From assembly GCA_050084515.1 (NCBI GenBank), contig CM114271.1:4154001-4218000 (forward strand): 64,000 bases of DNA. The letters run 5' to 3'. This document shows positions 14,654-61,614 of the stretch, in pieces. The notes under the pieces were generated by a model. The model saw nothing but the letters and a program-made list of their open reading frames with translations. It ran no database searches and was not told the origin of the DNA. Positions within the stretch are counted from its first letter, which is position 1. Each line of letters begins with the position of its first letter. Made by a program: the position numbers and the translations under genes. This stretch comes from Blasia pusilla. Lineage: Eukaryota.

Positions 14654-15690
14654 AAATAGAAAATGGCACTCATAAACACCTTCATAATTGCATATCCAAG
14701 TTTATGAATAGTAAAATTCAACAGAAGTAAAAATACTTAGAATGGTGTCATTGATACATTCCAAAACTTCACCTCACTATCAAGTTAGTTACATTAGTCC
14801 TTTATTGAACAACACCACACCATAGTCTTCGAGATAGACATATGTCTTCTCTTTGTAGCTATAATACAAGAAAGTACATAAAAGACACATAGAAATGATT
14901 TCCCAAGGTAGAAAAAAAGACATCACAATAGGAATTCTTCAACCATCATAGGAATATGCATGATAAGAACTTCAGGAAGTGATAACACATATGTAATCAT
15001 GTGGAAAAAAGTTTATTGTGTACTCAATTGGAATAATTGAAGTGTAGGACAGAGGTCATCATGCTATAGGATCGGAGAAAAAAATTAAACCAAAGAACTT
15101 ACATGTGACAATTTAAAATCTCTTAGTGCTGGAAACTACCCAATGGTGGCATTTAGTTTACTACTTAATGAACCACTTTCTTCATATTCAACTCACGCCA
15201 ACTAATGGCACTCTCAACTTCATCTCCAAATATACGTTGTGGTGGATCATCGTTTTCATTTATCTCCCACAATGGGTAATCTAGTTGTGTTATACTTTTA
15301 AGGTCTACTCGGACTATACCAAGTGCAATCTCCTTACAATGGACTTGTCACGACCACTCAAGCCTAAAATAACATCGATACCCAAAATATTTTTGATGAG
15401 ATTTGGTTGGGTAAGATATACCTCGTCCCCCCCACAAAATTGCAATCATCAGGTCGAAGTTAGACACCAAGGTAGTTGCATGTCGAGATACATATGCAAG
15501 TATGAGATTTTCATGGGTTACTTGGATGAAGGTCCCCATACTAGTAAGTTCCTTGAAAATCTTACAAATGTCACTTGATTGGTTATAGATTATACGAACT
15601 ACAAGAAAATGAGAACACCTATTTCTATGAAGAAAAGAGGAGATATGTTATGCAAAGTCATTGAGCATCAAGAAATATGGTAAAAAAATA

Positions 15691-18600
15691 TGTGGAAAAC
15701 TGCTAAAAAAGCATAATTGGTGGGAAACGGCTCTCACACTCACACATCATCATGACGAACGAAATTTGCAATGAGAGAATGAATGGAGGCTGGTCCCCTT
15801 CTCAATTATATAGGGTATGTACAAACAACCCTAACCCTAACCCTAACCCTAACCTTAACCTTAACCATAATCTCGAGTTAGACTAACTATGATTAACTAA
15901 CCCTAGTTAAGACAATCACGCTTAACTGATTAACCAATATTAAGCTTCCATACTTGGTGTGAGTACCAAATGTAGCAGTTTAGATGTTTCATGAGCTTGA
16001 TTGTAACTCAATCTTTAATATTCCCCCTCAAGCTCATATCGATATCTCTAACGACTAAATCATTTCTAAACATCTCAAACTTATCTCTAAACAATGCCTT
16101 TGTAAAGATGTCAGAAATTTGATGATCTGTACCTATCTACACAAGATCAATTTCTCCTGCAAGCCCTTTCTCTCTGATAAAATGATAGTGCACCTCAACA
16201 TGTTTTGTACGAGCATGTACACACGATTATTAGCAAGCCTGATGCTACTAATATTGTCTGCATATATTACACTAGGTCTTAAGTTACTTACACCATTTGC
16301 AACAAGTAATCGACGAAGCCACACCACCTCACATGCTGTATTGGTTGCTCCTTTGTACTTAGCCTCTGTTGAAGATAAAACAACTGCGGGTTGCTTTTTT
16401 GAAGCCCAACTTATAACTGCGCTTCCCAAAGTAAATGAATAACCAGATGTGGAGTGTCGACCATATACGCTTCTTGGTCAATCATCATCTGTGAATCCCT
16501 GTAATTAAAAACAAGGAGAAGGTTCGAATTGAAACCCGAATTGAACAAAGAATTTCACATACCGCATAATCCTCCTCACAACATCAAGGTGAGGTTTTCG
16601 AGGTGGTTGCATAAATTGGCTCACTAGGCCAACTACATAGCTCAAATCTCGCCTGATTATAGTCAGATAGATCAAACTTCCAACCATGCACATGTTCATA
16701 TTAGAATCTACAAGCAACTCTCCTTCATCCACTCTTAGCTTCAGACTATGGTCCAACGGTGTAGAGATTGGCTTACAAGCCATCATACGATATTTTGAAA
16801 GCATATGAAGAGCATATTTTCGTTATAGTAACCACATGCTCTCTCCAACCTTGATAAGTTCAACATCAAAGAAATACTTGAGTTGTGCGAAGTCCTTCAT
16901 ACCAAATTTTGCTTGTAACTTCAACTTAACTTATTGTACCAATTCTTCATTACTTCCAGTAATCAAGAGGTTGTCAACATACAACACAATAATAACCGTA
17001 TGATCTTTTCCTCTCAAGACATATAATGAGGAGTCAGAATCACATACCCTAAATCCCAACTCTTGTAGGACGTATGTAATCTTGCCATACCAAGCTCTTG
17101 GAGCTTGTTTGAGCCTATATAGAGCTTTCTTCAACCTGCATACTCGAAGTGGAAACTCAGGATGCTCATATCCAAGTAGTTGAGTCATATATACCTCCTC
17201 ATATAGATCTCCATTCAAGAAGGCATTTTTGACGTCCATGTGATGTAATCTCCACTTCTTACTTAGTGCAATTGCAAGCACTGTTCTCGTAGTCGCCATC
17301 TTTGCAATAGGGCTAAAAGTTTCTTCATAATCAATGCCATATTGTTGTGCATAGCCATTAGCCACCAATCTCGCTTTGTATCTGTTAACTATACCATCTT
17401 GATTGCGTTTGATTTTGTAAACCCATTCGCAACCAATAGCTTCCTTACCCGAAGATATATCAACCAGCTCCCATATCTCTTGATGGCTTAATGCAACAAG
17501 CTCTTCCTCCATAGCTTCAACCCATTCAACTTTACCTATAACTTCTTCAAAACAACTCGGCTCATGTTCTTGAAGGGTAGTCATCATATATGCATGATGT
17601 GTCGTAAGGAAACCTTCATTTATGAATCTATGAATAGGATGTGTAACTCTACTTGATCTATGAAATTGTTGTTCAGAGGTAGATGCCTCTGACACCTAAC
17701 TCAAGCTCTTACTTGTGTCAACAAATTGAATACGTATCCTTCCCTTCCATGGACTCACAAATCTAATTGATGAATCTATGACCTCTCTTCCTAATCTTGC
17801 ACTAGTACTTGGGGAATTTGAAGGCAATGTCTGTTGGTTTACAGTCATATTCTCCCTCTCAACAAACAAGTTTAGAGATAGAATAGGTTTAGATGGAGCA
17901 TACCATGACTTTAGCTTAACAAAGACAACATCGCGACTAATAATAAGCTGCCTAGAGGATGGAATGTAGCACTTATATCCCTTAGTTTCATCATCGTAGC
18001 TAATGAAGATACATCTTTCAAACTTGGGGTCTAATTTTTTACGTCTCTCAGAAGGAACACGAGCATAATAAGTACAAACAAATACTTTCAAGAAGGAAAA
18101 ATCAAATTTATTTTCTATGAAGACTTCCAATGGAGTCTTATCATGAACTCTTGTTGTTGGAGTTTGGTTGATTAAGAAAACTACACACGCTACAGCCTCT
18201 ACCCAATACACCTTAGGTATGTTCTTCTCATTCAACATAGCTCGTGCCGCCTCAATAATATGTCGATTCTTTCTCTCAACCACTCCATTTTGTTCTGGAG
18301 TGTAATGGCAAGTCCCTTGACATTAGATGCCATTATAACATAAATAGTCATCAAACTCTGTTGAAAGATTTTCTTCTCCTCCATCACAACGTAATTTCAA
18401 AATGTGATCTTCAGTCTACTTTTCTACTAGAACTCTCAATGTTTGGAACACTGAGAATACCTCTAACTTGGCTTTCAGAAAGTATACCCATATATACTTA
18501 GAGAAGTCATCAATAAATGAAACAAAATACTGACAACCACTAAGGCTATGTTGTGATGCTGTCCACACATTATTGTGGATCAACTTCAATATCTTGGATG

Positions 18601-21017
18601 CTCTTTTACCTTGCTTTGGAAAAGGAAATGTAGCTTGTTTTCCCAATTGGCAAGCAGGACATACCTCTAACGTAGCAAGACTCGCTAATTTAGGAAGTCC
18701 TTTTACTACATTAGGTTATGAAAGACTGTAATATTTGAAGATTCATATGTCCAATTCTCTTATGCCAAACATTTAGATCTGTGACTTGTTGGCCGGTTTG
18801 ACCATACATTCATATTTGAATATCTAGCATAGAGACATCTAATTTGAACATTCTGCCAGATCTAGTTCCTTTGACCATCGTAGTCTGGTCATTCATTGTT
18901 TCAATGAAATATTCATATGTGTTAAACTTCACTTGATAACCCTGTTCTATTATGTGTCCTACAAAGATCAATTTCTTGCAATGATAGGAATATAGAGAAT
19001 ATTTCCAAGAGCACAAAGATCATATGATGTTATTGGAACTTTATCGATATGCATGATATGATGTTGAGGGTGATCTCCTGTGAGCACTATTGCAGGATCT
19101 TTCACAAGCTCCAAACTAATGAACCATTTAGGTTGTGAGGTCATGTGATTTGATGCACTAGAGTCAATGCACCAATCTGTTGTCGAGTCTTTCTTGACCA
19201 TTGCTCCCATATGATGAGTCATGACCAAGAGAGTTTCGTTTGTGAAAGTTTTTGTTGTTGTTATTACTCTTGGTGTTGTTGCTCCACATATTTGTTTTGC
19301 TCTAAGGCTTCTATTCTCATATCTAGCTTCTTCTTGAAGCAAAACTTTTTATAGTGACCTTTTATCCCATAGTAATTGCAAGATCCAGGGATCCTCTACT
19401 ACCGATCTCGACCCCAACGATTTCCACCATCACCACCTTGTCATTGCGTTTGGTACTGGTTCGTAGTTGATTGAGTGATGTTATATTGAGTGCCTCTTCT
19501 TCCATATGCTTGCTATCCACGACGACCACGGAAGCTTCTATCACGACCCCTACCTTTGTTTTATCCATAACCTACAAATAACGAACTCTCTTGCAGACTA
19601 GACGAGCTGCCGCTGTCTACTAGGCGCATCTCTTCATTGATTAACAATGAGACTAACTCTTGAGAGGTTGGATACTTCTCTCTCATATAGATAGAGGTCT
19701 CAAAGGACCTATAATCCTTTGGAAGGCCTTGAAGAGTGAACAAAATCATATCATCATCTTCTACTGTCACTCTAATGTTATTCAATTGATCAAGAATATG
19801 TTAGATACTCAAAATATAATCATTGATGCTCTTCGATCCTTTCCTCACTTCGTTCAATTGTTGTTTCAATTAAAGCTTTCTGGCCTTTGTGGATGTCTGG
19901 AACAGCTTTTCCAATGCATCTTAGGTCTCCTTCAGAGTATCAACATCTTGAATGTGACCTTTCATTGGCAAACTGATAGTCATGGAAATGTAGTGGATTA
20001 CTAGCCTTGCGTGTTTGTTCCAAGCGCGAATATTCAAGTCTGTTGAGTCACCTTCTGGCTTTGCCTCATCACCTGTGACAAACTCCCATAGTTCTTGACC
20101 CATGAGAAATTGTTTCATGCGAAACTTCCAGACATTGTAATTCTACTTATCTAGCTTCTCGCATATGATTGCTGCTGAGGAATACTCCACGGCGAATAAT
20201 TTCACTCACAAAAACGTAATTTCAAGCACTCACTGCTCCAATTGAAGCATAGACCAGTCTTATAGAGAAATCGACTTGAAATTTGCCAAGATTGATCAAT
20301 TGTATGAAACAACTAGTCGAAATTGGTCTGTAGAGAGCAAACTACACAACTTTTCTTCACTAATTGCACTTTCCTACATTGAGATTGCTACTGCAGGAGC
20401 TCAGAATGTCAAAATCAAGAAATTTTGGATGCATTAGAAAGCTCTTAACGAGCTCTATAAGACCGCTACATCAAGCCTTTGGCATCATCCTAGCTGTTGC
20501 AGACCCATATGGCTAAATCGACCAAGAAAGCCCGTAAAAATGCCTACAAAGTTTTATCATCATCAAAGCTCCACATGAAATCTGCACCCATTGAGCTCTG
20601 AATGAAATTTTGTTCTCCCAAAATGATATTATGCCTTTTCTTTCCTCTCTTCTCTCTTCAAACACCAAGAATTTCAACTGATGTTCTCGTATTGCTTTGA
20701 TACCATGTGGAAAACTGCTAAAAAAGCATAACTGGTGGGAAACGACTCTCACACTCACACATTACCATGGAGAACAAAATTTGTAATGAGAGAATGAGTG
20801 GAGGCTGGTTCCCTTCTCAATTATATAGGGCATGTACAAGAAACTCTAACCCTAACATTAACCATAGTCTCGAGTTAGACTAACTATGATTAACTAACCC
20901 TAGTTAAGATAATCGCACTTAACTGACCAACCAAGATTAAGCTTTCCTATTTGGTGTGAGTACCAAATGTAGCAGTTCAAGTGTTTCATGAGCTTGATTA
21001 AAACTCAATCTTCAATA
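15691..21017 (-). mobile_element. Near full-length Ty1/copia LTR retrotransposon (5' LTR 21017..20706, PBS 20705..20694, gag-PR-INT-RT-RH, PPT ~16030..16021, 3' LTR 16020..15691); ORF broken by stops and frameshifts
   Basis: Two similar LTRs (312 and 330 bp). PBS TGGTATCAAAGC (initiator-Met type) and PPT TGAGGGGGAA. Motifs appear in copia order: gag NYNVWKFRMKQFL, protease WCIDSSASNHM, integrase YFVSFIDDFSKYIWVYF and VERKNRHIIEAARAM, RT YKARLVANGYAQQYGIDYEETFSP and LYVDN, RNase H ISWASKKQ..V.LSSTEAKY. Confidence 0.97.
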
Positions 21018-21909: not shown

Positions 21910-22312
21910 TATTGGATATTCAACATCTATTTCTAAATTCGCATCATTAATCTAAATGATCCCCTTGTATGAGGAGAAGCCTAGATTAATGGTCCCAACT
22001 TAGATATCTAAGGAGTCATAGTTACATGGCGTAGGTGATTTATAGAATAGAGTGTTATTCTAATGACCTAACTCTTCAAATGGGGAAAATTCTAACTAAA
22101 AAAATATAAAAATAGGCCACAAATATAATTTCCAGATTATTCATATAGTCGAGCAATTATAACACTAGTGCATTCTTGTATGTCGAGTCTTCTCCATGTT
22201 TTGGCCTAGGTTCAATAGAGGCTCAATTGTGAGCGCACAAACATATTAGGTCATTTTCTGCTTTAAGGATTTCTACATATTCAATGATTTGTTCATATTC
22301 TCTTTTGTTATA
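21910..22312 (+). mobile_element. Degenerate copy of LTR family B
   Basis: Shares CCTTGTATGAGGAGAAGCCTAGATT..TGGT, AAGGAGTCATAGT and GTATGTCGAGT..TCTCC blocks with 32914-33356. Confidence 0.65.
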
Positions 22313-27468: not shown

Positions 27469-27965
27469 GCTTTCGCTAAAAATCAAATAGTATAGGAAAT
27501 AGTATAGGTCACCAGACATAATGTCTAAACTATAGTGAAGTCCACATGGAAGACTTTGTGTCTAAAGTTCCATAAAATCCACTTTGCACAATTTTAAGTG
27601 AAAATTTAGAAGACAGAGTAAGAATAGGAATCATAACCCCCCTATAGGAATAGGAATCATAATTAAGACAATTGAGATAATTGAAAATTGAATTGGCTTG
27701 TTTTATCGACCAAGATTTTCCAAAAAGTGTTCAAATTCAGCTTTTTGGTAAGTGGCGTCCTGCCTCTTCTTCTGCTTCATCTCCGCCTCCATGCATTTCT
27801 TCTCGGCCTTCTCATCCTCCGCGAGCAATTTCGCTTCCCGCTTCTCCTCTTGCTTCGCGAGCTTCTCTAGAGCTAGCTTTGCCAACATTTCCTGCTTCCT
27901 CATCTTGGTTTCCTCTCGCGCCTCGATTTCCTCGTGCCGCACACCTACGGCCGTGCGTCGCGTAC

Positions 27966-30082
27966 TAGGATTCCTATCAAGTTTTAGCTCAGCCATTTCT
28001 ACTCTCAACTCTCTCAAACCTTTCGCCAATTCATCAATAGAATCTTCAAGCTTTGCTGACATGGGCTTAGGCAATAGATTTGAAATTGATACCTCCGACT
28101 TGAATAGTGCGATTCTACCTCTACTTCAACTTTGCTCTGTGAGAATAGCAACAACTTCTTCCACTTTCTTCCAATTAGTCTTGACACCTCCTTTTTCGGT
28201 TATGAAAAGCTTGTCCTCCAAATTCTCATCATGCCGCCTCAAGGAATAACTCGGTTTTTCTCAAGTCTAGAGTTGCTCTTTCGGAAGAAGAAAGCTGAAA
28301 AAACCGCTTATCAAACTCACGCAACAATTCATTTGGAGTCATTCCCTTCCCTAGACGTTGCTCTATCCATTCTAGAAAACTCCTCTTAATCACCCGATCC
28401 ACATCATCATCAAGAATTCTCCTTTCAGCAATTGCTCATACTCCTCCCACGAGGTTGGATTTTCTACTCTCAACTTCTTTACTTGACTACGGATCTCTAG
28501 TATTATAGCTAACTCAAAACTTGACACCATATAACCTTCGGGTACACGGTTTACCTCAATCTCACAGACGTATTCTCGAACATGGTTATGTCCCTCCCCT
28601 CAAATCTCCCCAACTTCTTTACAATCGCTTGGAGAGCCCTTGTTGATCTTTGCTCTCCTATGTGAACTCTTCCTTGTTGGCTCAATAATGTTGGCAAAGT
28701 TCAGAAAAGATCCTCAGCTCTCTCAATTCCCATTGATGAAATACTCCCAAAAGTAGTCATCTTGATAAGACTCCAACTTGCAAATACAATCTATCGCCTC
28801 AAAGATCTCTCAATGGAAGCATCATTTGTCATATCGAGAGCCTTTCTTCGTCTCGCGCAGGCCTTCTAGCTGCGGCACACGTGGTCGATGCAAGGTAAAC
28901 TCTTTGAGAAGTTCTCCTTTTTCAATGCAAAACTAATATGAATACTCTCTATTCTCTCACGACAAGTATCACAAATGGAAGTGCCGAGGTGATCACTTCT
29001 TCGTAACATCAGACCCCAAAATTCCTAACTATAAAATCCCTATAAACTATTTTACGTTTGTACACGAAGAAGATAGCACAACTAGTGTTAAAACCTACTT
29101 CACCAGGCCTATTGATATCCATGGATTGCTATATAAGGACATACAAAGTACAATCCCATATCCTTCCATATGTGACGATAGGAAGAATCACCGGAGTTGG
29201 AGATTGAATGACCTGGTTCATGAACGCTTCCCCAAAATGATAAACTAAATAGCGAGTGAACCAATGTCTATCTACAAAGAGTACCTTGACATGGTATGGA
29301 TTGAGGAAAGGAAATTCGGGCACAACTCGTGCTCCACCCCTATCCATGCTTGACACACATTCTCTACTCCTCAAGAATGGATTTTGGCGGAATTATTCTC
29401 CCAAGAGGGGTAATCCACTCTCATTGGGAAAGAAACAAGCCAAAACATTCACTATTTTAGTATGACAAGCCTCTCATCTCCACACACACACCACACTCTA
29501 GAAACTTCTCGAAGGATAGACCATGGTCAAGTTACTCTCCCAAGAGGGATGATCCACTCTCATTGGAAGAGCAAACAATCCCAAAGCCATACACTCAAGA
29601 GTGACACGAAAGACTCAAGATGTGGAATAGAAGGTGATGAACCCTTGAAGGTCTCTCTTCTTTATATACTCACAAGAGATCCACAAGAGTACGAAATAGA
29701 GCTAATCTTATCTCGTGCCATATGGCTTCCTCTCAAGGCTTAACCAATCACATTTTGACACAAGTAGATTTCCTCTTATCTCTTCCAAAATATCATTTTT
29801 TATTCACTTGATATTTTCCAAATTATCCCAACTAACCTAGCCACCAACCAAGCCTACTTTTGCTTTTCATTAAAGCACGAACTTGAGTACTTTACTTTTA
29901 TAAAGTCATCTTTTATTTATTATCTCTTTTCCTAAAGTTGGGCCCGCATAAAAGAGGCACCATAAAGAGGTTTAAACATGAGAATTTCCTTTTCCTAAGC
30001 TAATTTACTTAATACTAATAAAACTCTATCTAACATTTAACGAGGAAATAATTTACACACTGACTGATTTTACTATACGACA
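27966..30082 (-). mobile_element. Truncated family-A LTR retrotransposon: 5' LTR (30082..28827), PBS-like site and decayed gag-like coiled-coil region
   Basis: LTR collinear with 12733-13986. It is followed by AA-TGATGCTTCCATTGAGAG (TGGTGCTTCC in the 34685 copy). Downstream frame reads ...KLEDSIDELAKGLRELRVEMAELK. Confidence 0.85.
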
Positions 30083-30863
30083 ACGGTTGTAGATTGGAAT
30101 CGATAAGGAGGAAGGATCCGAGAGCCTTGTCCCCTTAGGAACCCCGTATATGTCCCATGTGATCCATGATGAGTCCCAACGCCTCCCCCGATTTTGAAGC
30201 TTTTGGAAACGAAAATCCATCGAAATCAATATTTGGTCCTTCCCCGAGAACAACCACATCGCAACTCCAAACGCTTCAAATCCAAGGCACCAACACTCAC
30301 TCGTCATCATCCGACAGCTCCTCCAGAATCACCGTTGGCCTCGTCCTTCCAAATTTTGGGATAACTGGTAGTGAGGATGGCGTCACAACCAGTGGCTCCA
30401 ATGGAGGTTCCTCTACTCGTCCAGGCAACTTGTAAATGCCAATCATCCTCTCATAATCTAACTTTTCCTCTCGGCAAAGTGCAAACAAGGCGTTCCTCAC
30501 CTCAAGGTAGAGAATGTTTTGCCCACTCTGCCAAGCAGCTCTAACACTTGCCCTAGAAAGACCGACCAAATCTAGAACCAAATCACATGGCCTCAAACAT
30601 AGCTCCATCAGGGTTTGCAGGAGTGAGGGGGATTTTTCCCTTCCTCCAAGCATAGGCACCCCTTCCTCGATCACGATTCGAGGGGGTGAATTTGACAGGT
30701 TGTTCAGAGTGTATCCACGTAAACCTAGATCAACATGATCCTTTACCTCAAAAACCTCAAACCTGTGCTCCGGTCTGACAAAACAATATACGTACGAATA
30801 TTCAATCTGCAAAAAACACTCGTTAAAATAAGCTTAGAATCGATGGGGGGAAGAGTTCCAAGA

Positions 30864-31178
30864 GAAACCCGACGGAATTTGACGGGTTGCAAATGAAATA
30901 TATCACCGAGGCAATTTTCTTTCAAGGGTCTCTCAGCATTCAGACGCTTTGCCCAGCAACCGTGGATGCCCAAAGTGCAACCCGTCAGAATCCGACAGGT
31001 TGCAAGGGTTGCGGCAAGGCCTATTAGGGTGGGTGCTGCGACCCGTCGGAGTCCGACGGATAGCAGGACCCACTCACTCTCTGGCATGTGTTTCGCAAAC
31101 CGTTGGAGTCCGACGCGTTGCAGGAAACACTCCCTTTCTGGGTTGGATTTTGCATCCTGTTGGAGTCCGACGGTTTGC
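30864..31178. repeat. Array 1 of 27-bp palindrome GCAACCCGTCGGAnTCCGACGGGTTGC (5 copies, intronic)
   Basis: Copies start at 30864, 30977, 31038, 31095 and 31152. Confidence 0.9.
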
Positions 31179-32913
31179 AAGAAAGAACAAAAAAATTTGC
31201 GGGTTTAAGTTATCGAACTTGCCAAAATTTGGTTTCAAACCGACCTTAGTGGGTAGTCATAGTTCACTACCCAAGATTGCACGGTTTGCCACTTCAATGA
31301 TCGCTTCACGCAGTGCAAGTTGAAGAGCTCATCCTTGCTTCCTCCGATGAGAACCAAGAAACACCTGGTGTCACTACGATACGCGTTGGTAAAGGAAAAC
31401 ATCATCGCTATCTGGTCATATGTGAATGGAGTGTTCCATTCCAAGACTATGTCGCGTGGATTTTCTGCCCACACTTTGAGCCCCGACGGTAGATCAGCGA
31501 TGAGGAGGTCAACTACAACCTCCTCACGAACCCCATTGACGGTCCATGGGGCATGGCCACTTTTCAGAAGCTTACGTCCCAACAGTGTCAGCTTCTCCAA
31601 GGCAGGTGTAGACTTGTGCTGAGAACTTATCCAATTCTTCCAGCAACGATGTCTGATGTAGCAGAATGGTGAGTTTTGCTGCTAAATCCCTGTGCTTCCC
31701 CAATGATGAAAGAGTCTAGACAAAATTCTTGTCCCCCCCCCCCCTCCCCCTTGAAGGAATTGGGTGTCTCCCTCTTTTGCTTTTCGTGTGTGGGGTGCCT
31801 GCTTGTTGGGGTCTCCGTGACATCGGAATCCACTGGATTTGATTTTGGGGCCTCCCGTATCCATCCTTCTCGTCTTGATGATCTTGCTTCGGATGGTTTG
31901 GGGGCCTTTACCTTGGCTCTCAACCCCGCAGTCGACTTGTCTTTTGCCGTGATTGTCTTTGACAAAATCTCCGCCGCCTCAATCGCTTGTGCCTTGCCAT
32001 CTCCTTCGAAGTACTCCTCGGTCTTGAAGATATTTGGGATGTTCTCCTCGCCAGCAGCTAGCACATGATACAAGTCTTGCATTTTGGGTCAATGAGCTCA
32101 TCAGGGTCATTGAAGTCCAACCAGATTGGACAGTTGAGCAATTCCCAAGGGCTCATCTCGAGGGCCATGTGCATGTCATACATGGAGAATCCTTCGCCAT
32201 TCGGAGTATCTGCCCATAGCTTGAGCGCAGCCGGAAACTTCCTCCATATTCTTGCATTCACACAAGAGTTCAAGAACTTGAACACCATCCTCTACGCAAC
32301 TCAATGGCGGGATGAATCGGCAGCTTGATCTTGAAGCTCCTTCTTCTTTTTGGTGAAGTCTCGTGTCTTCGGGTCGCCAATCTCCTCGTCGACATCCCCC
32401 TGTGGAAAAATCTGGTTCTTGAATATCATCTTGAACCCAGGGTTCTTTACCCGCTTATCCCGGATGTCATTTAACCACAACTCGAACTCCTCCGCTGATT
32501 CGAGGCTAGCCTCCTCGGGAATGAGCAGAATTCTCTGCATGTCATCTTGAAGGCATTCAATTATGGACTTTCCCAGCAAGCGCAAGGCATCCTAGAAGGA
32601 TGACTCTCGCAGCCACTGGGAGATGATTGGGTCCAAGGCCCTCAAGGGATGGTGTGCCAATTTTTTCTTTTCCTCTATTCCTTCTAGACTGATCTTCATC
32701 AATCTCATCCGCCTAAATTCGGAAATCCCTGAAAGGGCCAACCGGTGAACTCGATCCAATAACACCTTCTCTACATTGCATGCTTGGGGATCCTCATCCC
32801 TCTTTCGCTGCCTCTTGATTATGGCCTTCAACTCTTTGTAGAAGTCTGGCCCGAGCTCGGGGTTTAGGACGGCGATGTACCGCTGCATCTTGCTCGCAAG
32901 GTAATGGGTGGAC

Positions 32914-33356
32914 TGTTGGATTCTCAACATCCACTTCTCTAAGCACCATTAATCTGATCGGCTCCCTTGTATGAAAAGAAGCCTAGATTGATGGTTCCGA
33001 CTTAGACGTCGAAGGAGTCATAGTAATATGACGTAGGTGGTTTGAGGAGTAGCGTTACTAGGTTTATCTTACCCTATATTGCATCAGGGTGCCCCGCACC
33101 CTGATGCAATATAGGGTTAGATAAACGTTTCTTTGTTTCTATGAATAGAAACAAAGAAAAATAGGTAAAAACCCTAGTTTTCCCAAGTAGTCAAATAGTC
33201 GGGAGCCGCAACGGTAGCGCATTCTCGTATGTCGAGTTATCTCCCAGTTCAGGTTCCATCGAAGCTCTTCTGTGAGCGCACGGACGGACTAGGCCACTTT
33301 GTATCTCTAAGTTTTGTAAAGATTTCAGTGACTTCGTCACTTTCCGTTTTCTCACA
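32914..33356 (+). mobile_element. Solo LTR (family B, 443 bp) with 5-bp TSD TGGAC, inserted in the MTase-like gene
   Basis: TGTTG...CACA termini. TGGAC at 32909-32913 and 33357-33361. Homologous (inverted) to 47275-47700. Confidence 0.93.
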
Positions 33357-33709
33357 TGGACGCCGACACCTCAACTTAAATGAACTTGGCTCTCTCAGAA
33401 GCCGAAACATTCTCTCTCCACTCGAGCTCAAGTGTCGCGCTTCTTTTCGCCACCTGGATGTTTTACCAGCATAGTATTGTAACAACTACATCTTGGGAAA
33501 TGAATGTGTTGGCCCATGTCTTCTTTTTTATTTGGGCTCCTTTTGCGAGCATCTCATCCACCAATTCCTCTCCTAGGAATCCCTTGTATTACGATGGGTG
33601 AGTTCTAAGCACCTTCCTCACTAGGTCGTATTTTTGGATCCAGTGATGGGTAACATTCCTTCGGACACAATATTGCAAACATCAACAAAGAGTAAGAAAA
33701 TTTACAACT

Positions 33710-34071
33710 ACAACCCGTCGTTTTTCGACGGGTTGGAAGCAGACAAACAAAACAAAAGCTATTTGCAACCCGTCAAAGTCTGACGGGTTTTTCCAAAAGT
33801 TTTGAACAATCCGACGGAAATCCACGGTTTGTATTCGGGTCCATCACGGCTGGGTTGCAACCCGTCGGACTCCGTCGGGTTGCACCTCGACTCCGATAAA
33901 TTCAAAAATTTAACCCGTCAGAAACCGACGGATTGCAAAGCCATCCAAATTGAGTTGAGGATTCAGACGCTAGTTCTTGCACTCGCAACCCGTCGAGGTC
34001 CGACGGGTTGGAAATTATAGAGTGCCAACATGCGAGTTTGATTGGCTCTGCAACCCGTCGGTCTTCAACGA
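33710..34071. repeat. Array 2 of the 27-bp palindrome (7 copies; last one cut by an LTR)
   Basis: Copies start at 33710, 33765, 33806, 33857, 33910, 33985 and 34050. Confidence 0.9.
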
Positions 34072-34840
34072 TGTCGTATAGTAAAATCAACCTGTGTGTA
34101 AACTCCTTCCTCGTTAAGTGTTAGATAGAGTTTTATTAGTATTAAGTAAATTAGCTAAGGAAAAGGAAATTCCCATGTTTAAACCTCTTTATGGTGCCTT
34201 TCCTCAATCCATACCATGTCAAGGTACTCTTTGTAGATAGGCACTGGTTCACTCGCTATTTAGTTTATCACTTTGGGGAAGCGTCCATGAACCAGGTCAT
34301 TCAATCTCCAACTCCGGTGATTCTTCCTATCGTCACATATGGAAGGACATGGGATTGTACTTTGTATGTTTGTATATAGGGATCCATGGACGTCAATAGG
34401 CCTGCTCAAGTAGGGTTTAACACTAGTTGTGTTATCTTCCTCGTGTACAAGCATAAAGTAGTTTATAGGGATTTTATAGTTACTAATTTTGGGGTCCGAT
34501 GTTATGAAGAAGTGATCGCCTCGGCACTTCCATTTGTGATACTTGTCGTGAGAGAATGGAGAGTATACATGATAATTTTGTATTGAAAAAGGAGAACTTC
34601 TTAGAGAGTTCACCTTGCATCGACCACGTCTTCCGCGGTTAGAAGGCTTGCCCTTACTCGACGAAAGGCTCTTGATACGACAAATGGTGCTTCCACTGAG
34701 AGATCTTTGAGGCGGTAGATTGTGTTTGCAAGTTAGAGTCTTATCAAGATGACTACTTTTGGGAGTACTCCATCAATGGTAACTGAGGGAGTTGAGGATC
34801 TTCTCTGAACTTTGACAACATTGTTGAGCCAACAAGGAGG
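34072..34840 (+). mobile_element. Family-A LTR (34072..34682, with ~640-bp internal deletion near 34199) plus PBS-like site and short internal sequence
   Basis: Reverse complement of the 28827-30082 LTR ends (TGTCGTATAGTAAAATC...GATACGACA). TGGTGCTTCCACTGAGAG at 34685. Confidence 0.9.
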
Positions 34841-34852
34841 AGTGAGAAGGCA

Positions 34853-35100
34853 GTGTCCTGCCTCTTCTTCAGCTTTATCTCCGCATCCATGCGTTTCTTC
34901 TCGGCCTTCTCCGTATCTACGAGCAATTTTGCTTCTCGCTTCTCCTCTTGCTTCGCGAGCTTCTCCAATGCAAGTTTCGCCAACATTTCCTGCTTCCTCA
35001 TTTCGGCTTCACGCTCGCGTTGCTCGATTTCTCTCGCCGTACATTTGCAGGCGTCCGTCGCGTAACAGAAGGTGGAGTTCAGCTGGATTTAGGCGAGAAG
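34853..35100 (-). pseudogene. Coiled-coil coding fragment, probably an upstream exon of the MTase-like gene; second copy at ~27703-27965
   Basis: MRKQEMLAKLALEKLAKQEEKREAKLL..EKAEKK.M.AE.K.KKRQD occurs at both loci on the minus strand. Confidence 0.55.
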
Positions 35101-35506
35101 CTCTCGACCGTGCTGGCTTAGCTTTTTTTTCGAGTCATCTTGAAAAAAGCGTAGAATCAAACATTGCGCGAGGGGTTTTCTCCTGAATCTTTGTTTCCTC
35201 TTAAAAGAATTGATTCAACTCGAACCGTCGTCACTAATTGTCGTAACCCCCAAATGAAGAGACAACAACCAACCGTCGAAATGTCCGAGTAATTGGAAAG
35301 TCAATTTTCGTAGTCGTGTGAACGGGGGAGCTGAAATCAACGCTGAAAAGTATAGAATGGAAAAGTGAAAGCGTCGAAACTGGTCCTCATATACTTTCGG
35401 AGCAATTGCACTCAACCGTTGGTACGACGGTCGACCGTTGGCGTCCGATGGATAACCGGTTGTACGATGGTCGACCGTTACGGTGCAAGTTCCGCGTGGT
35501 CTGCCT

Positions 35507-35775
35507 GCAACTTGTCAGAGTTTGATAGGTTTCTGGGAGAGATCCCGCTCAGTTCCTCCAACACGTCAGACCCCAACGGGTTGCAAGGTACCCATCCAGC
35601 TTGGGTCCCGTGCAACCCGTCTGACTCCGATGGCTTGCACAAGGACCATTCATCCTGATTCATGCAACCCGTCGGACTCCGACGAGTTGCAAGAAGATCA
35701 CGTGAAACATGCACGATAACCCACGCACTGAACCTGTGCGAGAATTTTGCAATCCGTCGGACTTTGACGGGTTAT
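35507..35775. repeat. Array 3 of the 27-bp palindrome (5 copies; a further degenerate copy near 35849)
   Basis: Copies start at 35507, 35558, 35612, 35664 and 35749. Confidence 0.9.
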
Positions 35776-36599
35776 GTTGTCCCATCCAAACTCGATTCAA
35801 CTCGACAAAATGCTTAGGGCTCGTTCCTTGATCTTTCCCTTCGATATTCCAACCCGTCCGGCTCCCAGGGATTCAAGGAAGCCTGGAAAATCCTTGCCCA
35901 CTACTGAGTAAAAAGCATGGCCAAATATTCCTCTGGCTGGTCCAGTCAACTAACTACCAACTGCATGTCAGACATATTCTGTCTGAATTTAAATGGACAC
36001 TGTTCACTATAAATTCAACATTTTCATTCTTATTCTCATTCTCATTCTTATTCTTATTCTATCTTGGAAATCATTCATGGTCTGACCAAAATGGAGAATT
36101 ATGTGAAACTCACATGTGGCAGCCATTAGCGGGCCTTCCTCAATCAGAGATAATTCGAGCCCAACCTGGTGACATTCATGTAATTGTCGAAGAACATTTC
36201 CTCTCACTCCAATTTCTACTCCATATTGGAACCATTTTTGTATCCATGGATGTCAAGGTTGATGGGCAAGATGATGTTATTGGTGAAACAGTCCAACCGG
36301 AGATTGGAGGCTCCAAAGTTTGGAACCTCTTTCCCTACTCCAATGACAATTCAGAGTTTATGGCTTACCTCTGATCACCACTTCCACTCATGAAGACGGT
36401 CCGAGACCTTCCACTGTTCCATGCTCCACGTTTGGCACGGCTGCTTCGGCCGATCCAACGTCAACTCCAATTTCACAAGCACGGAATGTCGCGGTCGATC
36501 TCACCGGATCTGTTGGAAACATGTCTGACCCAACATCTGCTTACTCTTTCCTGCTTTGAGTTTCAGGGAATTATTTGCTTTCTTCTCTTCCCTTGAAAC

Positions 36600-37180
36600 T
36601 GTTCAAGCACGTTATCGTGGATAAGCTGCCCACAACGTATGATGAAGACTGCATTTTTGAGCTGCCTCCACTTGTCAGTCTGGCTTAGAAAAAAGATGGA
36701 GGCCGCCTGAAGGGTATGGACCGAAAATTGGACCATAATCGATGGTGCAGATTACAGCGGACGAGCGCTTCAATCCCATGTGATCCTTGGATTGTGTCTC
36801 ATCGCCAATGCGTTGGCGCATTGGAGTGCAGAAGTTCAGGATGCCCCTTCCTCGAGAGGAACGCAGTTGTTAATACTTCCCTATTCCCTCCCAAAAATGC
36901 AGAAACTCCTTACGCTGTGGTTACCACCATACTACTGGGTGGCCATCGATGTTCGCACTGTCAAGCTTGTGCTTCCTATGTTAGAGCTTGTCCAACTTAT
37001 ATTTTTTTCATAGTGCGCGACTACACTTCTATGTCCGAGTATACAAGGTTGGAAATTCATGTTGGGTCTCACACTCATCCTGTCACGGGTGCAATTGAGA
37101 GACACATCAAGGAGGATGTGGCAAAGAAAGTGGCCGGAATGTACAAAAATTCTCTAGGATCAAATCCAGGAGTGATCTAG
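36600..37180 (+). pseudogene. Transposon-type protein fragment with WRKY/GCM-like zinc-binding domain
   Basis: Frame reads VDKLPTTYDEDCIFELPP..*..LKGMDRKLDHNRW...HRQCVGALEC....CPFL....RCSHC.....CPTYIFF....RLEIHVGSHTHPV. The Cys pattern with terminal G.H.HP resembles the GCM/WRKY-like DNA-binding domains of Mutator-like transposases. No DDE core is visible downstream. Confidence 0.6.
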
Positions 37181-40100: not shown

Positions 40101-41149
40101 TCAAGAGAAAATAATAACACTCAAGAGTCAAGGATTCATCCGTTTGTGTCCCAACAATTCTCTCTCCTTTTAGGGTACAATTTTTTTTAATGGAATTGGA
40201 GTTATGATTAGCATTCAAAAAATATTCAATTGATTGGAGGAGTGGAGAAATAGAAAAGTGGGGGGAAATTCTTTTGGATATGTGACTAGTGGGTTTTCTT
40301 TTTAACATTTTTCATCTCTATCCCTCCACCCTAATGCAATGTTATGGTATTGAATTACTAGTTCCTTAGAACAATTAGTGGAACAGACCAATAACTCAAA
40401 CCTTAACATCAATAAGCTTGACCCAAAATTTTAAAAATTCTACCTGTTTTGCACCAAAAAAATTTCAAGATGTTTGTGTAGAAATTAGAATTTCTTCAGT
40501 TTTACTGCTGGTATTTTCAAAACATTTCCTACTCCATGGGTTAAGAAAGTCCCAAAAAAAAGTCTTCACAGCTAAAAGAGTTTCAAGAAAAGATTCAAAA
40601 GCTTGTGCACTTTGGAGCATCTTATGGTTCATCTGGGAAAGAGTCTCAAACATATACACCGTGGCTTCGTACATTTGAGCACTAGTTTTGAAATTATTAT
40701 ATGGAGGGACTAATAACCAATGACCAATCAATCAAAACACAAACTTTTCATGTTTGTGAAAGACGAAAAATTTATAGCCAGAACATCCTCTGAATACTAA
40801 AAAAGAATTATCAACATTACACCGCAAACTTGTTCATTCCGCTTTAGTATCTGATATAAAAGTCATATACACGCTTAAATGCTTCATTGAGGTTCTGTTT
40901 TAGACGTGCTCTAGGAGTGCCGATTGTTGCTCCTCACACTTGTTCTATTTGATATTGGTTTGCAGATGGTTCACACGTGGTGGAATAAGATCGACGTTCA
41001 TGAAAGACTATTTATTTGCATGGACCCAATTATCAAAGTAACAACTTACGTTTCGGCCAATTTGGAGTTCTCGACATAACAACGTGAAATCTAAAATGGG
41101 AGGAGTTCACATCACCATTATTATCCAATCAACAACCTACTAATAGACT

Positions 41150-43398
41150 AGATTTGGCTATCAGAGGTTTTCAGAAAAGAAAAAAAGAGTCATTAAGGCT
41201 CATTCTTGAGAAGAATATTATGGGTAAGGTTGTAGGATATATCCATGTGGTTGAATTCCAAAAAAGATGTTTACCATATATACACATTTTGATTATTCTA
41301 GGCTATGAGGATAAGCCACATTCTATATCTAATTATGATGATATAATATCAACTAAGACATCTAATGCAAACACTCATCCAAGACTTCATTCTACTATAG
41401 CTAATTTCATGCTTCATGATCCATGTGGATAACTCAATCCCAATGCTTCATGCATGGACAAGAAAACCAAAAAAATGTGCCAAAAGCTATTCGAAGCCAT
41501 TTGCAACCATCATTAAGGAGAGCGAGGATGGTTATCTAATTTATTGAAGGTATGCAATCTATGTCCAATTTCAATCATCTTTTTCCTCCCCTTGATTCGA
41601 AAATATTTTTCATGAAATATTTTGAATTTTTTTCCTCTTTCCTACTAAAAGAATTGGTTAATGGAATGAAGATAAGGAAGCACAGTCAAACTTTGGGTGA
41701 TTGTTGGATTTTTTCTTATCATATCTTCTTATATACTCTCTTTATTGAGTCTTCAAATGTCATATCAATTTGAAGATAAAAAACACAATTTCAATTATGA
41801 AATACTTATATAAATATGTGTAGAAGGGATCACATGTCATCTCATTTAAGGAGTGAGATGATGCAACTATCTCCTTATAAATTAATATTATTAATGAAAC
41901 CTCACACTATCTTGATGCAAATTAAGCATTATTTTATTTTTGGTCATTTTAACATTTCGGGATATTCTAAAACAATATATTCAATACTAATCTATTTTTA
42001 TCCTCATTATTATTATTATGTATTGTGTATCGATATATCTCTTCTTCTGAGGCATGCAGGCGACTTTTCAAGTTAAGCTTACTTACAGAACATCCAAGTA
42101 TTGTAAGATTGGCAAATCATCTATGAGAGTTGCAAATATTTTTCTTCAATGATCACGATATTATAACATAAAATCTACAAAAAGATAGGGAGACAACTCT
42201 CAAAAAAATATTTGCAACTAACTATTTTGATTCTTCAACACGCAAATATTTCTCTATTGAATTTCCTTCATATAATTATTAGAGGAGTAAAAAATGGATT
42301 TGTAGATTCATAAAAGAAACGGTTGTGGTCATTTTATTGGTCAATAGTATCTGTCACATCCAGATATATCTGCTTACAATTTCTACAATATTAAAACCTC
42401 TTTAGGTTCCGTTTCAAAATTATGTGGAATATTTTACGCAATACACATTTACATTTATGTTTGTATAGGTGAAGGAGAATTCCATTGGTTGTGGTTGCTA
42501 CTTTATCATATTTGAGTTGCTACTGCATATGTGTATTTAAGAACCATAGGTGGAGTGCTTTATCCAACCTTCAAGGAGGATACTATTCAAATGTATCTTC
42601 TCAAGGGCGGATAATGGGAAAGTTTACTTATGTCTCCAAGAAGCTTTTGAAATTTACACGGGTCGTACGCTTTGTCAACTCTTTGTCATTTTTCTAGCCT
42701 ATAACACACATTTTCAACGTGATGAACTATAGAGTCAAATTTTTATCTCACATATAGATAATATCCTATATAAACAACGTGAGGTAATTCCTATTCTTAT
42801 TTTCTTTAGCACACATATTTATTCCATCTACTAATCAACTTATTTAATGAATTATAGGATCGATTAAGACAACAAGGATTTTTTATCTTGCCCTCGATGC
42901 TTTCATTATTAATACCATATTATTGGAGGTTCACTATCATTTGCAAGACCAAAGGAAAGAGACTATCAGATTTCCCAAATTTGTCCTAAGCTAATTGCCA
43001 TGCTTCATCTTTCCATTCTTATTTGGAAGCAAAAGAGCTCCTTTATGATCGTGATTCATTATATGAACAAGCTAGGTTAGGAGAGAAGAATTTGAATGAT
43101 AAAAATAGTTTATTTGGAATGCTTTACACAATAGTCATGATATTTGAAATTTCATTAATGAATGTAATATCTTGCCCAAAATATGAATATCTTTAAATAC
43201 TTAATAGCAAAGTTGTATGCTTAATTCAAAGAGCTTGGATTATCATAGGGGTTGAGGCACTTATAATTCATCACCATGCATTTGAGGTTGTAAATAATTC
43301 TTTCTAAGATACCATGAGAGTGGTATCCTAAGACTTTAGAAATATTCCGTTCTGAGGAAAATTAATAATCTATGTTGGAGATTTTTTCCAAGGCTTGC
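41150..43398 (+). mobile_element. Decayed Helitron RepHel (Rep core to PIF1 helicase motif III)
   Basis: HVVEFQKRCLPYIHILI (HUH motif), MLHDPCG*LNPNASCM, KYLYKY, and at the right end EAL..HHHAFEVV...PF*GKLIIYVGDFFQ. Confidence 0.9.
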
Positions 43399-46700: not shown

Positions 46701-48240
46701 TGTCAAAAAGTTGTTGGCCAAAAAGGACAGGTGTTACCGGTTAGGGTGTTTGAAACCCAAAAGGGCACTATGCTATAATAGTTATTATTATAGCATGGTG
46801 CCAAGCTAGAGCAAGAGTTGTTGAAGAAACTACACACATATAAACAAAACAAAGAGAGAGGTAGCTTGCATAAACAAGAAGAGTGAGAGGATGCACAAAG
46901 AGAATAAGAGACGCTCATTCTTCTCCTTGTATATAGAGGTTGGGAGAAGCAATGCTTGCCATAGAATCCACACAAAAGGTTTATAACCTTACCCTATATG
47001 AGTACACAAGTTACATGAACCAACTCATATCACTTTTTAAGCTATCACGCTAAATATCAATATACTAACCTATATGAAGCATCTTAAGCTTGGGCTTGTA
47101 TTAATTTTCCCCCTCAAGATCATCCCTACATATCCTTTACATATAAATGGAATTTTAAATAATCAAAATTATCTCTAGATAGTATCTAGGTGAAGATATA
47201 ATCCAATTGTTCATTTGTATTAACATATGTAAGCTTTACTTTATCTACAAAGATTTTCTCTCTAATGAAATAATTGTGAGAAAACAAAAAGTGACGAAAT
47301 CACTGAAATCTTTACAAAACTTGGAGATAACTCGACATAGTGGCATAGTCCGTCCGTGTGCTCACTGAAGAGCTTCGATGGAACCTAAACATGGAGATAA
47401 CTTGACATACGAGAATTCGCTACTGCTGCGGCTCTTAACTTTTTAACTACTCAGGAAACTAGGGGTTTTTACCTATTTTTTGTATTTCTATTAATAGAGT
47501 TTTTTCATCATGGTGCCCCACGCACCGTGATGCAATATAGGGTTCGATAATCCTAGTAACGCTACTCCATAAACCATCTACATCATATTACTATGACTCC
47601 TCCGATGTCTAAGTTGGCACCATCAATCTAGGCTTCTCCTCATACAAGGGGGCCGATCAGATTAATTGTGCTTAGAGAAGTGGATGTTGAGAATCCAACA
47701 ATAATAAAGCATCTTAATGTGCTTTGCCCTAACTTGAAACATTCTTTTTTTTTCCAAATGAATATTGTTGATATTCTCTCATAAATGAATATTAGATTTG
47801 AATATTCTAAGCCTATATATATGAGTAGATTTTTCAACCAAATTGATTTTTGTAATGCCATGGTTACTCTTTGGTATTAATCTTTAAATGAAGATAAGGC
47901 ACAAATCAACTATTTCTTCAAAAACTAGCCTACTACCACACTTCCAAATTTGAATCTGGAAGTTGATCTTCTGTCATGGGTGTTCCAACCCAATATTCAT
48001 AAGAATACATGTATACTTACAAGGCTTTAATTATGAGTAGTGAAGTCTAAACAGATTTTTGAATTTCACATACCTTATGACCCGCCTAATTACATATATC
48101 GAGATGTAGTTTATGCACTGGTTGCATAAATTGACTTACCAAACCAATTGCATAATTAAGATCTGGCTTATGATAGTCTAGTAGATCAAACTCCCAACCA
48201 TAGCATAAGAAGTGTTGGGATTGCTTATCTCATTGTCTTC
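46701..48240 (-). mobile_element. 3' part of a Ty1/copia element (RT C-terminus, RNase H, PPT, probable 3' LTR ~47105..46701)
   Basis: MVGSLIY....PDLNYAIGLVSQFMQP; KHIK...FIREK...YVNTNEQLDYIFT; PPT CTTGAGGGGGAA at ~47117..47106. Confidence 0.85.
47275..47700 (-). mobile_element. Solo LTR (family B) with 5-bp TSD ATAAT, nested in the copia RNase H
   Basis: TGTGAG...CCAACA termini. ATAAT at 47270-47274 and 47701-47705. Inverted homolog of 32914-33356. Confidence 0.93.
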
Positions 48241-61434: not shown

Positions 61435-61614
61435 GTATTTGTCAAGTCCCGTGGGCCTTTTGGATCCTTGTGGACAATAATCATCGCATTCATTCTCTCC
61501 TGTGGACAATAAATCAGTTCATTCATTGTCTCTCTCTGTGTAGCATGGGCTGCCTATTGTCGGAGTAGGAGGAGCCACTGCCCTATGTGCTGAACGTGAG
61601 AGAGAGAGAGGTGG

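Follow-up and report, generated by a model that had tools for sequence, protein, structure and literature searches.

A 27-bp palindrome of Blasia pusilla marks a Mutator-like transposon whose ParB-methylase accessory gene encodes a candidate binding protein

The three arrays of a 27-bp palindrome in a stretch of 64,000 nucleotides of the Blasia pusilla genome (assembly GCA_050084515.1, contig CM114271.1, positions 4,154,001 to 4,218,000 of the forward strand; here called the window, with coordinates counted from its first letter) are cis sites inside a Mutator-like DNA transposon of about 12.5 kb, where they occupy two introns and the promoter gap between divergent genes. These are a transposase gene and, head-to-head with it, an accessory gene that is spliced and transcribed, with a product of about 1,250 amino acids (estimated from the exons and a homologue of 1,207 amino acids in Riccia) combining a ParB/Srx-fold domain with a methyltransferase fold. 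By analogy, the palindromes may be parS-like loading sites for the element's ParB protein, working in the manner of VANDAL/VANC or VirB anti-silencing, a reading that we place a little short of an even chance. The arrays in the window are:

30864..31178 (no strand): palindrome array 1, five copies starting at 30864, 30977, 31038, 31095 and 31152, within the intron that splits the methyltransferase domain
33710..34076 (no strand): palindrome array 2, seven copies starting at 33710, 33765, 33806, 33857, 33910, 33985 and 34050 (the seventh truncated), within the intron that follows the ParB exon
35507..35875 (no strand): palindrome array 3, in the gap between the divergent genes, starts at 35507, 35558, 35612, 35664 and 35749 (five copies, to 35775), followed by a weak 18th copy at 35849

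The consensus, GCAACCCGTCGGA-N-TCCGACGGGTTGC, forms a palindrome of 27 bp with 17 copies in the window, each carrying one to eight mismatches and none exact; seven have at most three mismatches, against none across 100 shuffles, and the sole further match outside the arrays is a stretch with nine mismatches at 8360. The copies lie at precisely the start-to-start distances that an earlier note on this DNA, made from the letters alone, had given for its three arrays, to which the weak copy at 35849 is to be added. Spacers are 24-58 bp long in most places and start spacings peak at 35, 48, 51-58 and 63-67 bp; as these peaks do not fall at multiples of 10.5, helical phasing of the palindromes is rejected.

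Across the genome searched (390 Mb, 26 contigs), the exact palindrome occurs 522 times and its reversed control not once. All 32 sampled loci with an exact palindrome belong to one transposon family (the sample was chosen by the exact palindrome alone and represents the first clusters listed on contig C1, not the genome at large): 29 are homologous to the element over 300 bp or more beyond the palindromes, and the others are two short non-autonomous derivatives and an orphan piece of array 2. The comparison of motif and family that the earlier note had called for thus finds the motif confined to this family in the sample. Intact copies carry 31-43 palindromes each, which cluster towards the two ends of the element, in the intergenic gap, in the intron of the transposase gene and in two of those of the accessory gene, with a single palindrome 190-220 bp from one end in six of six intact copies. 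None of 227 palindromes falls inside the exon-matched 48% of six full-length elements, which bears out the avoidance of coding exons noticed earlier in the window; the count uses six exon queries, with the accessory gene's first exon outside them, and the copies are related, so that these are not 227 independent trials. Being confined to the family and avoiding exons, the palindrome looks like a conserved site of the kind suggested at the outset, for a dimeric protein encoded by the element. The orphan fragment of array 2 (L073:1687-2353) has 10 palindromes and apparently lies within an intron of an unrelated gene; the two non-autonomous derivatives (L057:1720-2415 and L070:1909-2250, about 340 and 700 bp) retain both ends and 1-5 palindromes.

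Full-length copies measure 11.5-13.8 kb and end in G-rich terminal motifs, both starting with G, for which 844 and 941 exact occurrences are found genome-wide; a target-site duplication of 9-10 bp with at most one mismatch accompanies six of seven young copies, and one of 9 bp accompanies an older copy. Long terminal inverted repeats (TIRs) are absent; what the two ends have in common is one short inverted stretch, subterminal and rich in purines. The element is classed as non-TIR Mutator-like, an assignment that rests on the target duplication and on our reading of the transposase motifs. Searches with its exons gave about 2,600 first-look candidate loci, of which 150 were scored; on the small contigs C10 and C11, many copies of the older subfamily are found, often nested in each other. 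The window copy has been eroded at both ends and broken from within by pieces related to long terminal repeats (LTRs):

30083..37177 (no strand): truncated, decayed copy, from the older subfamily, of an element of about 11.5-12.8 kb, both ends gone; blastn matches to other copies (75-87%) stop at both coordinates
32914..33356 (no strand): nested 443-bp insertion resembling a solo LTR, TG...CA, with a 5-bp duplication (TGGAC) and a long internal hairpin; missing from other copies and foreign to the element
34062..34843 (minus strand): piece derived from an LTR retrotransposon, replacing about 1.5 kb including the ParB exon; inverted 90-91% matches to 28666-29311 and 29955-30093

The 443-bp insertion is of a family with a near-perfect long hairpin, represented three times in the window (33056-33133, 47275-47700 and 21912-22053). 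The CTAG at 37177-37180 was considered as a Helitron 3' end and ruled out, since other copies of the element continue on through the transposase.

The repeat-spacer look of the arrays had led the earlier note to describe a CRISPR-like architecture (clustered regularly interspaced short palindromic repeats) with unique spacers. That spacers differ from each other holds for most of the window, where mean identity in arrays 1, 2 and 3 is 0.62, 0.48 and 0.47 against 0.55, 0.48 and 0.46 after shuffling; it fails at the end of array 1, a 57-bp tandem of 2.5 copies at 77%, and it fails between elements, as seven regions from the subfamily of the window copy contain matches of at least 75% to 13 of the 14 window spacers. 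Against ten regions from the younger subfamily, one of the 14 finds a match, which is about shuffle level. Of the 186 spacers in six young copies, 57 pair with a direct partner at 80% identity or more and 14 more with an inverted one, so that 71 of 186 are duplicated. Tandem duplication and inversion make the arrays grow wherever the element has a non-coding gap; spacer sequences diverge with time, but the motif is maintained, its half-site consensus being identical in the old and young subfamilies, though their coding DNA is 67-73% identical (palindromes were collected for this comparison with up to seven mismatches, which partly favours the same-consensus result). Spacers that are inherited with the element, duplicated and inverted refute the CRISPR interpretation: the chance that this is a memory array storing foreign spacers is practically nil, no cas family being found among 19 open reading frames (ORFs) scanned, no CRISPR in Rfam, no phage match for array 2 and no match of the repeat in viral contigs.

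A motif that stays fixed while its spacers turn over indicates selection on the palindrome site. This bears on the alternative that the arrays have no protein partner and are neutral, self-propagating palindromic repeats (hot spots of hairpin formation or template switching) or structural elements of the introns. The direct and inverted duplications of spacers speak for it, and the single strand of array 2 folds strongly (z=-9.5), but palindromes give such folding trivially, and complete turnover of the spacers has left the motif as it was. Among 756 palindromes from loci not picked by motif, transitions at CG and CCG make up most of the changes, and double changes that compensate each other show no enrichment at 12 of the 13 positions, the sole exception being position 6, where a symmetric variant has been propagated; this covariation test is weak, as most changes post-date insertion. 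We regard arrays without a protein partner as very unlikely.

As to the protein partner, the earlier note had looked to a GCM-like binder and missed a better candidate in the accessory gene, in two introns of which arrays 1 and 2 are located. The parts of this gene that persist in the window are:

30297..30806 (minus strand): last ParB-methylase exon, the predicted S-adenosylmethionine-binding half (motif X-I) of the beta-class N6/N4 methyltransferase fold; 64% identical to P0002, which matches Pfam N6_N4_Mtase (E=1.4e-4) and M.RsrI (E=0.004)
30807..31222 (minus strand): intron dividing the methyltransferase domain; donor GC here and GT in the intact copy, acceptor AG
31223..33672 (minus strand): long middle exon, with the helical region, a charged linker and the N-terminal half of the methyltransferase; tblastn of P0001 at 46-75%
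34846..35260 (minus strand, upper end approximate): remnant of the first coding exon, the charged N-terminus, from ORFs and the match of 34846-35511 to other copies

The protein thus runs from a charged N-terminus through the ParB/Srx-fold domain and a helical middle region to a C-terminus with the fold of beta-class N6/N4 methyltransferases. In the window copy the middle exon is disrupted by stops, frameshifts and the solo LTR, and the ParB exon (P0003, 159 residues) is deleted. The middle exon P0001 is homologous to Riccia P0158 (E=2e-25), which carries ParB, middle region and methylase on a single chain of 1,207 residues. Elsewhere in the window, a gag-like ORF at 27703-28125 on the minus strand contains a piece of about 210 bp that is 83% identical to the first ParB-methylase exon (34855-35064), a captured or rearranged fragment.

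The ParB exon, modelled from 92 sequences with a predicted local distance difference test score (pLDDT) of 93.6, is placed by Foldseek nearest to ParB, Noc and KorB (best E=0.006) and by VIA exclusively among members of the ParB/Srx family in its top eight (best Z 8.5, rmsd 2.2, 91 aligned residues); the Atlas clusters that it matches are ParB_N, DUF3723 and DUF6551. Among 119 rows with a relaxed version of its GNHR motif, 113 have GNHR intact; it corresponds to GxxR, the nucleotide-binding P motif of the ParB fold (PMC12704722); the model thus gives the accessory protein a ParB/Srx fold complete with P motif, in a group of folds whose nucleotide preference is not predictable from sequence (PMC12704722). 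PDB sequence searches with this exon returned nothing, nor did a search for longer homologues from P0002. When the same genome was searched for another, more remote ParB family, the hits had uniform identities of 25-33%, and many were at loci already in this family. Among 1.8 billion representative sequences, P0003 has 149 relatives at E<=0.001; species names, available for 15 of the 20 checked, are all Riccia sorocarpa or Adiantum nelumboides.

Transcription of the gene is seen in three RNA runs of one study, found by species label, which place 152-174 reads per run on part of the intact copy, mainly in the orientation expected of sense transcripts. Over the L041 equivalent of the intron with array 1 the depth is 0-0.25. 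Six reads of run X7 pass directly from the 3' border of the ParB exon into the following exon, with GT-AG borders, so that the equivalent of the array 2 intron is spliced out; across the methylase intron (the array 1 type), no joint read is listed in the three runs. The last methylase exon (L041:2873-3426) shows a depth about tenfold higher, with recurring loose ends at 2873, 3209 and 3396; this may reflect a divergent, more expressed copy or a domesticated gene.

The methylase part has a permuted fold, with motif IV ahead of motif X-I, and its Riccia model (P0159, pLDDT 65) matches beta-class amino-methyltransferases with a Foldseek E of 4e-11 and a VIA Z of 14.8. The fold is thus whole, and the D-x-P of motif IV is kept across lineages. 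These features, together with CpG-rich palindrome cores, would fit an active amino-methyltransferase directed by the ParB domain to the arrays, marking the element with N4-methylcytosine or N6-methyladenine, a hypothesis published for algal elements. The aromatic residue of the (D/N/S)PP(Y/F/W) motif is, however, missing from most sequences: motif IV reads D-L-P-S in the window, DLPSG in 10 of 27 rows from the same genome (F in two, Y in none), D[LM]P[ST]G in Riccia (S or T in all motif-bearing rows) and DIPE in the metagenome, with DVPF in one Adiantum protein. Motif I is degenerate as well (DLVGLSG), and in the rotifer enzyme N4CMT a change of SPPY to APPA abolishes activity (PMC8885841). 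Since the aromatic residue is missing, the activity has most likely been lost, which makes an active methylase distinctly unlikely; most likely the domain would act, judging by these motifs, as a reader or shield of DNA or of modified bases, no longer methylating.

The main rival to ParB as the binder is the transposase:

36091..37177 (plus strand): 5' part of the transposase gene, with a Cys/His-rich N-terminal domain; tblastn of P0004 and P0005, aligned with the intact homologues P0199-P0201; the DDE core is lost here

Its conserved motifs (SFD..., MADN..., DAFH and GAES, supplying D, D, DxxH and E) are ones that we read, against the pattern of Mutator-like elements (MULEs), as a probable MULE DDE core with (C/D)xxH; Pfam returns no MULE match, and SWIM at E=0.014 falls under its cut-off. 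The N-terminus could be a zinc finger of the WRKY-GCM1 kind that binds the palindromes for cognate activation or for transpososome assembly on an element devoid of long TIRs, the ParB-methylase protein then doing something else. The N-terminus does show a conserved Cys/His pattern, MULE transposases are known to carry domains of the WRKY-GCM1 fold (PMC1702500), and one MULE transposase activates cognate copies unaided (10.64898/2026.08.24.746577); the palindrome close to one end in all six intact copies and the palindromes kept by the short L057 and L070 derivatives would suit such a role. Most palindromes, on the other hand, are separated from the ends by kilobases, unrelated motifs are found in relatives whose transposases are related, and the likeness of ACCCG to the GCM site extends over 5 bp only. 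Pfam, PDB and Atlas searches give no GCM match for the N-terminus, and PF03615 has two weak matches on the genome, neither of them on the element; the GCM-like binder proposed from the letters alone gains no support from these searches, and a transposase that binds the arrays is, as we weigh it, somewhat unlikely.

What speaks for ParB comes in part from relatives. ParB-methylase relatives occur in Riccia, in Adiantum and in metagenome contigs, where the palindrome differs from lineage to lineage. Scanning the metagenome contigs yielded 80 relative loci, which we guess to be of bryophyte origin; several encode a related transposase opposite the ParB gene, and part of a related methylase is present in some. 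Among 32 representative loci with a length of 3.9 kb or more, 17 contain a palindrome of their own, 22-25 bp long and in at least four copies, where shuffles give at most one. Many of these motifs are CpG-rich in the core, and one clade has an array spaced at 51 bp. The commonest of them has no match in the Blasia genome, and the Blasia motif, allowing up to six mismatches, has none in metagenome loci of at least 4 kb. Motif classes track a FastTree tree of ParB from 29 loci, which shows inheritance with the element but does not single out the binder, as kin share labels. The strongest argument, one by analogy, comes from red algae: there, inverted-repeat arrays adjoin ParB genes in elements with a transposase of an unrelated superfamily, so that ParB and not the transposase is the common factor (10.1101/2025.02.11.637652).

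Under the reading that makes ParB the binder, a dimer of the ParB-methylase protein would recognise the 27-bp palindrome as ParB does parS, close on it as a nucleotide-gated clamp and spread over the element of about 12 kb; it would keep cognate copies open enough for transcription and movement, comparable to VANC in VANDAL or to VirB against H-NS, and may in this way enable the element to tell its own copies apart and shield them. The wider proposal, that Mutator-like transposons of bryophytes and ferns carry a working nucleotide-gated sliding clamp of ParB type, with family-specific parS-like palindromes, a spreading anti-silencing action and a dead methylase as shield or reader, is a tentative one, which we would call possible rather than probable.

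Several observations weigh against ParB as binder and anti-silencer. The Foldseek scores of the ParB model are moderate, with none under 0.001, and no helix-turn-helix was identified in the middle region, which has no Pfam match. The RNA reads are few and mostly less than 95% identical to the intact copy, and therefore come from other copies or from a close relative. Among the metagenome loci, 15 of 32 have no palindrome family of at least four copies, the 17 array-bearing ones include two duplicate pairs, and the arrays of L120 and L083 may be unrelated repeats; motif classes would track a transposase tree likewise, as both genes are inherited together. Six loci (L101, L105, L117, L118, L152 and L153) have two or three palindrome families each, which could be separate sites for two proteins of the element. 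Protection of the palindromes from decay of 5-methylcytosine was looked for through private transitions and not seen: rates are 0.045 in palindromes against 0.046 in the rest of the element at CG and 0.038 against 0.040 at CHG, about four to five times the rate at A/T. The palindromes thus decay like ordinary methylated DNA, which means that inserted copies were methylated and that the sites gave no lasting protection.

Parts of this architecture have precedents, compared here by description. In the red alga Bostrychia, the Plavaka elements (PAG2/PAG3), giant DNA transposons, carry a ParB-like accessory gene beside tandem arrays of inverted repeats and, in a gene of its own, a PF01555 methylase, and homologues are noted in Mutator elements of Chondrus (10.1101/2025.02.11.637652). 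The Blasia element resembles these in being a DNA transposon with a ParB-like accessory gene, inverted-repeat arrays and a PF01555 methylase, and the same binding hypothesis has been put forward for them; they differ in that the transposase is of EnSpm/Plavaka type, one gene fuses ParB to a 2-oxoglutarate oxygenase and another fuses the methylase to a SET domain, whereas the Blasia element is Mutator-like, resides in a land plant and encodes a single ParB-methylase protein that has lost the aromatic residue. In the brown alga Ectocarpus, Sola1-1_Ec32 encodes a protein of 1,104 residues that joins ParB with an N4C/N6A methyltransferase on the strand opposite the transposase, as in Blasia; it belongs to the Sola superfamily, its methylase is treated as potentially active, and the accessible parts of the report, which cites Iyer 2011, mention no palindrome arrays (PMC12477816). 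ParB-like and PF01555 domains opposite a transposase, with inverted-repeat arrays, are thus an algal accessory architecture that the Blasia element matches.

VANDAL, the host element of VANC, is Mutator-like. Its family-specific short motifs have likewise been amassed by tandem duplication in introns and in intergenic and terminal non-coding regions, and its anti-silencing is proven; the VANC motifs, however, are 9-bp direct repeats in a single orientation (PMC5735166), and the Blasia element has a 27-bp palindrome and a protein whose identified domains, ParB and a beta-class methylase fold, point to something other than VANC; anti-silencing would here hold by analogy. With bacterial ParB/parS, Noc, KorB and VirB the element shares the ParB fold with GxxR and clustered palindromic sites (PMC12704722), VirB being an anti-silencer of the clamp type (PMC10770331); it has no parA, its gene is a spliced eukaryotic one, and the dimer and the bound nucleotide of the product are putative. 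Rotifer N4CMT and Marchantia MpDN4MT1 are further instances of a bacterial-type beta-class amino-methyltransferase fold in a eukaryote (PMC8885841, 10.1101/2021.02.12.428880), but these are active host enzymes with SPPY, whereas the Blasia protein is borne by a transposon, fused to ParB and devoid of that motif. In the literature searched (with subscription journals, Repbase and supplements outside it, the last of which may hold plant homologues), no Mutator element of a land plant is described that has such a gene or such arrays; algal transposons are already on record both with ParB beside inverted-repeat arrays and with ParB-methylase fusions, and the land-plant Mutator version appears to be new.

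If the anti-silencing reading is true, the element would be an independently evolved analogue of VANC, and its relatives would offer a ready-made set of proteins paired with their palindromes, of use in targeted epigenome editing; a ParB clamp on eukaryotic chromatin would be new biochemistry. A methylase fold kept across distant plants without its catalytic aromatic residue calls for explanation. For the ParB hypothesis raised in algae, the family provides a land-plant test case: the site is sharply defined at 27 bp, copies number about a thousand or more, transcripts are spliced, non-autonomous derivatives exist, and the differing palindromes of a dozen or so sister lineages could be swapped.

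The remainder of the window contains further mobile elements. A Copia-type LTR retrotransposon at 15690-21017 has LTRs of 331 bp that are 85% identical, an RVT_2 match at E=9e-57 and a piece of gag near 19924-20142; Mutator derivatives (L057) have often inserted into this retrotransposon. Two LTR-like direct repeats of about 1.26 kb, 89% identical and 16 kb apart, lie at 12732-13989 and 28826-30085, the second adjoining the broken left end of the element. A Helitron Rep fragment is found at 41088-41432 on the plus strand (Pfam Helitron_like_N, E=2e-12), and at 61600-64000, also on the plus strand, lie exons of a probable host gene for purple acid phosphatase (weak Pfam match, E=0.003).

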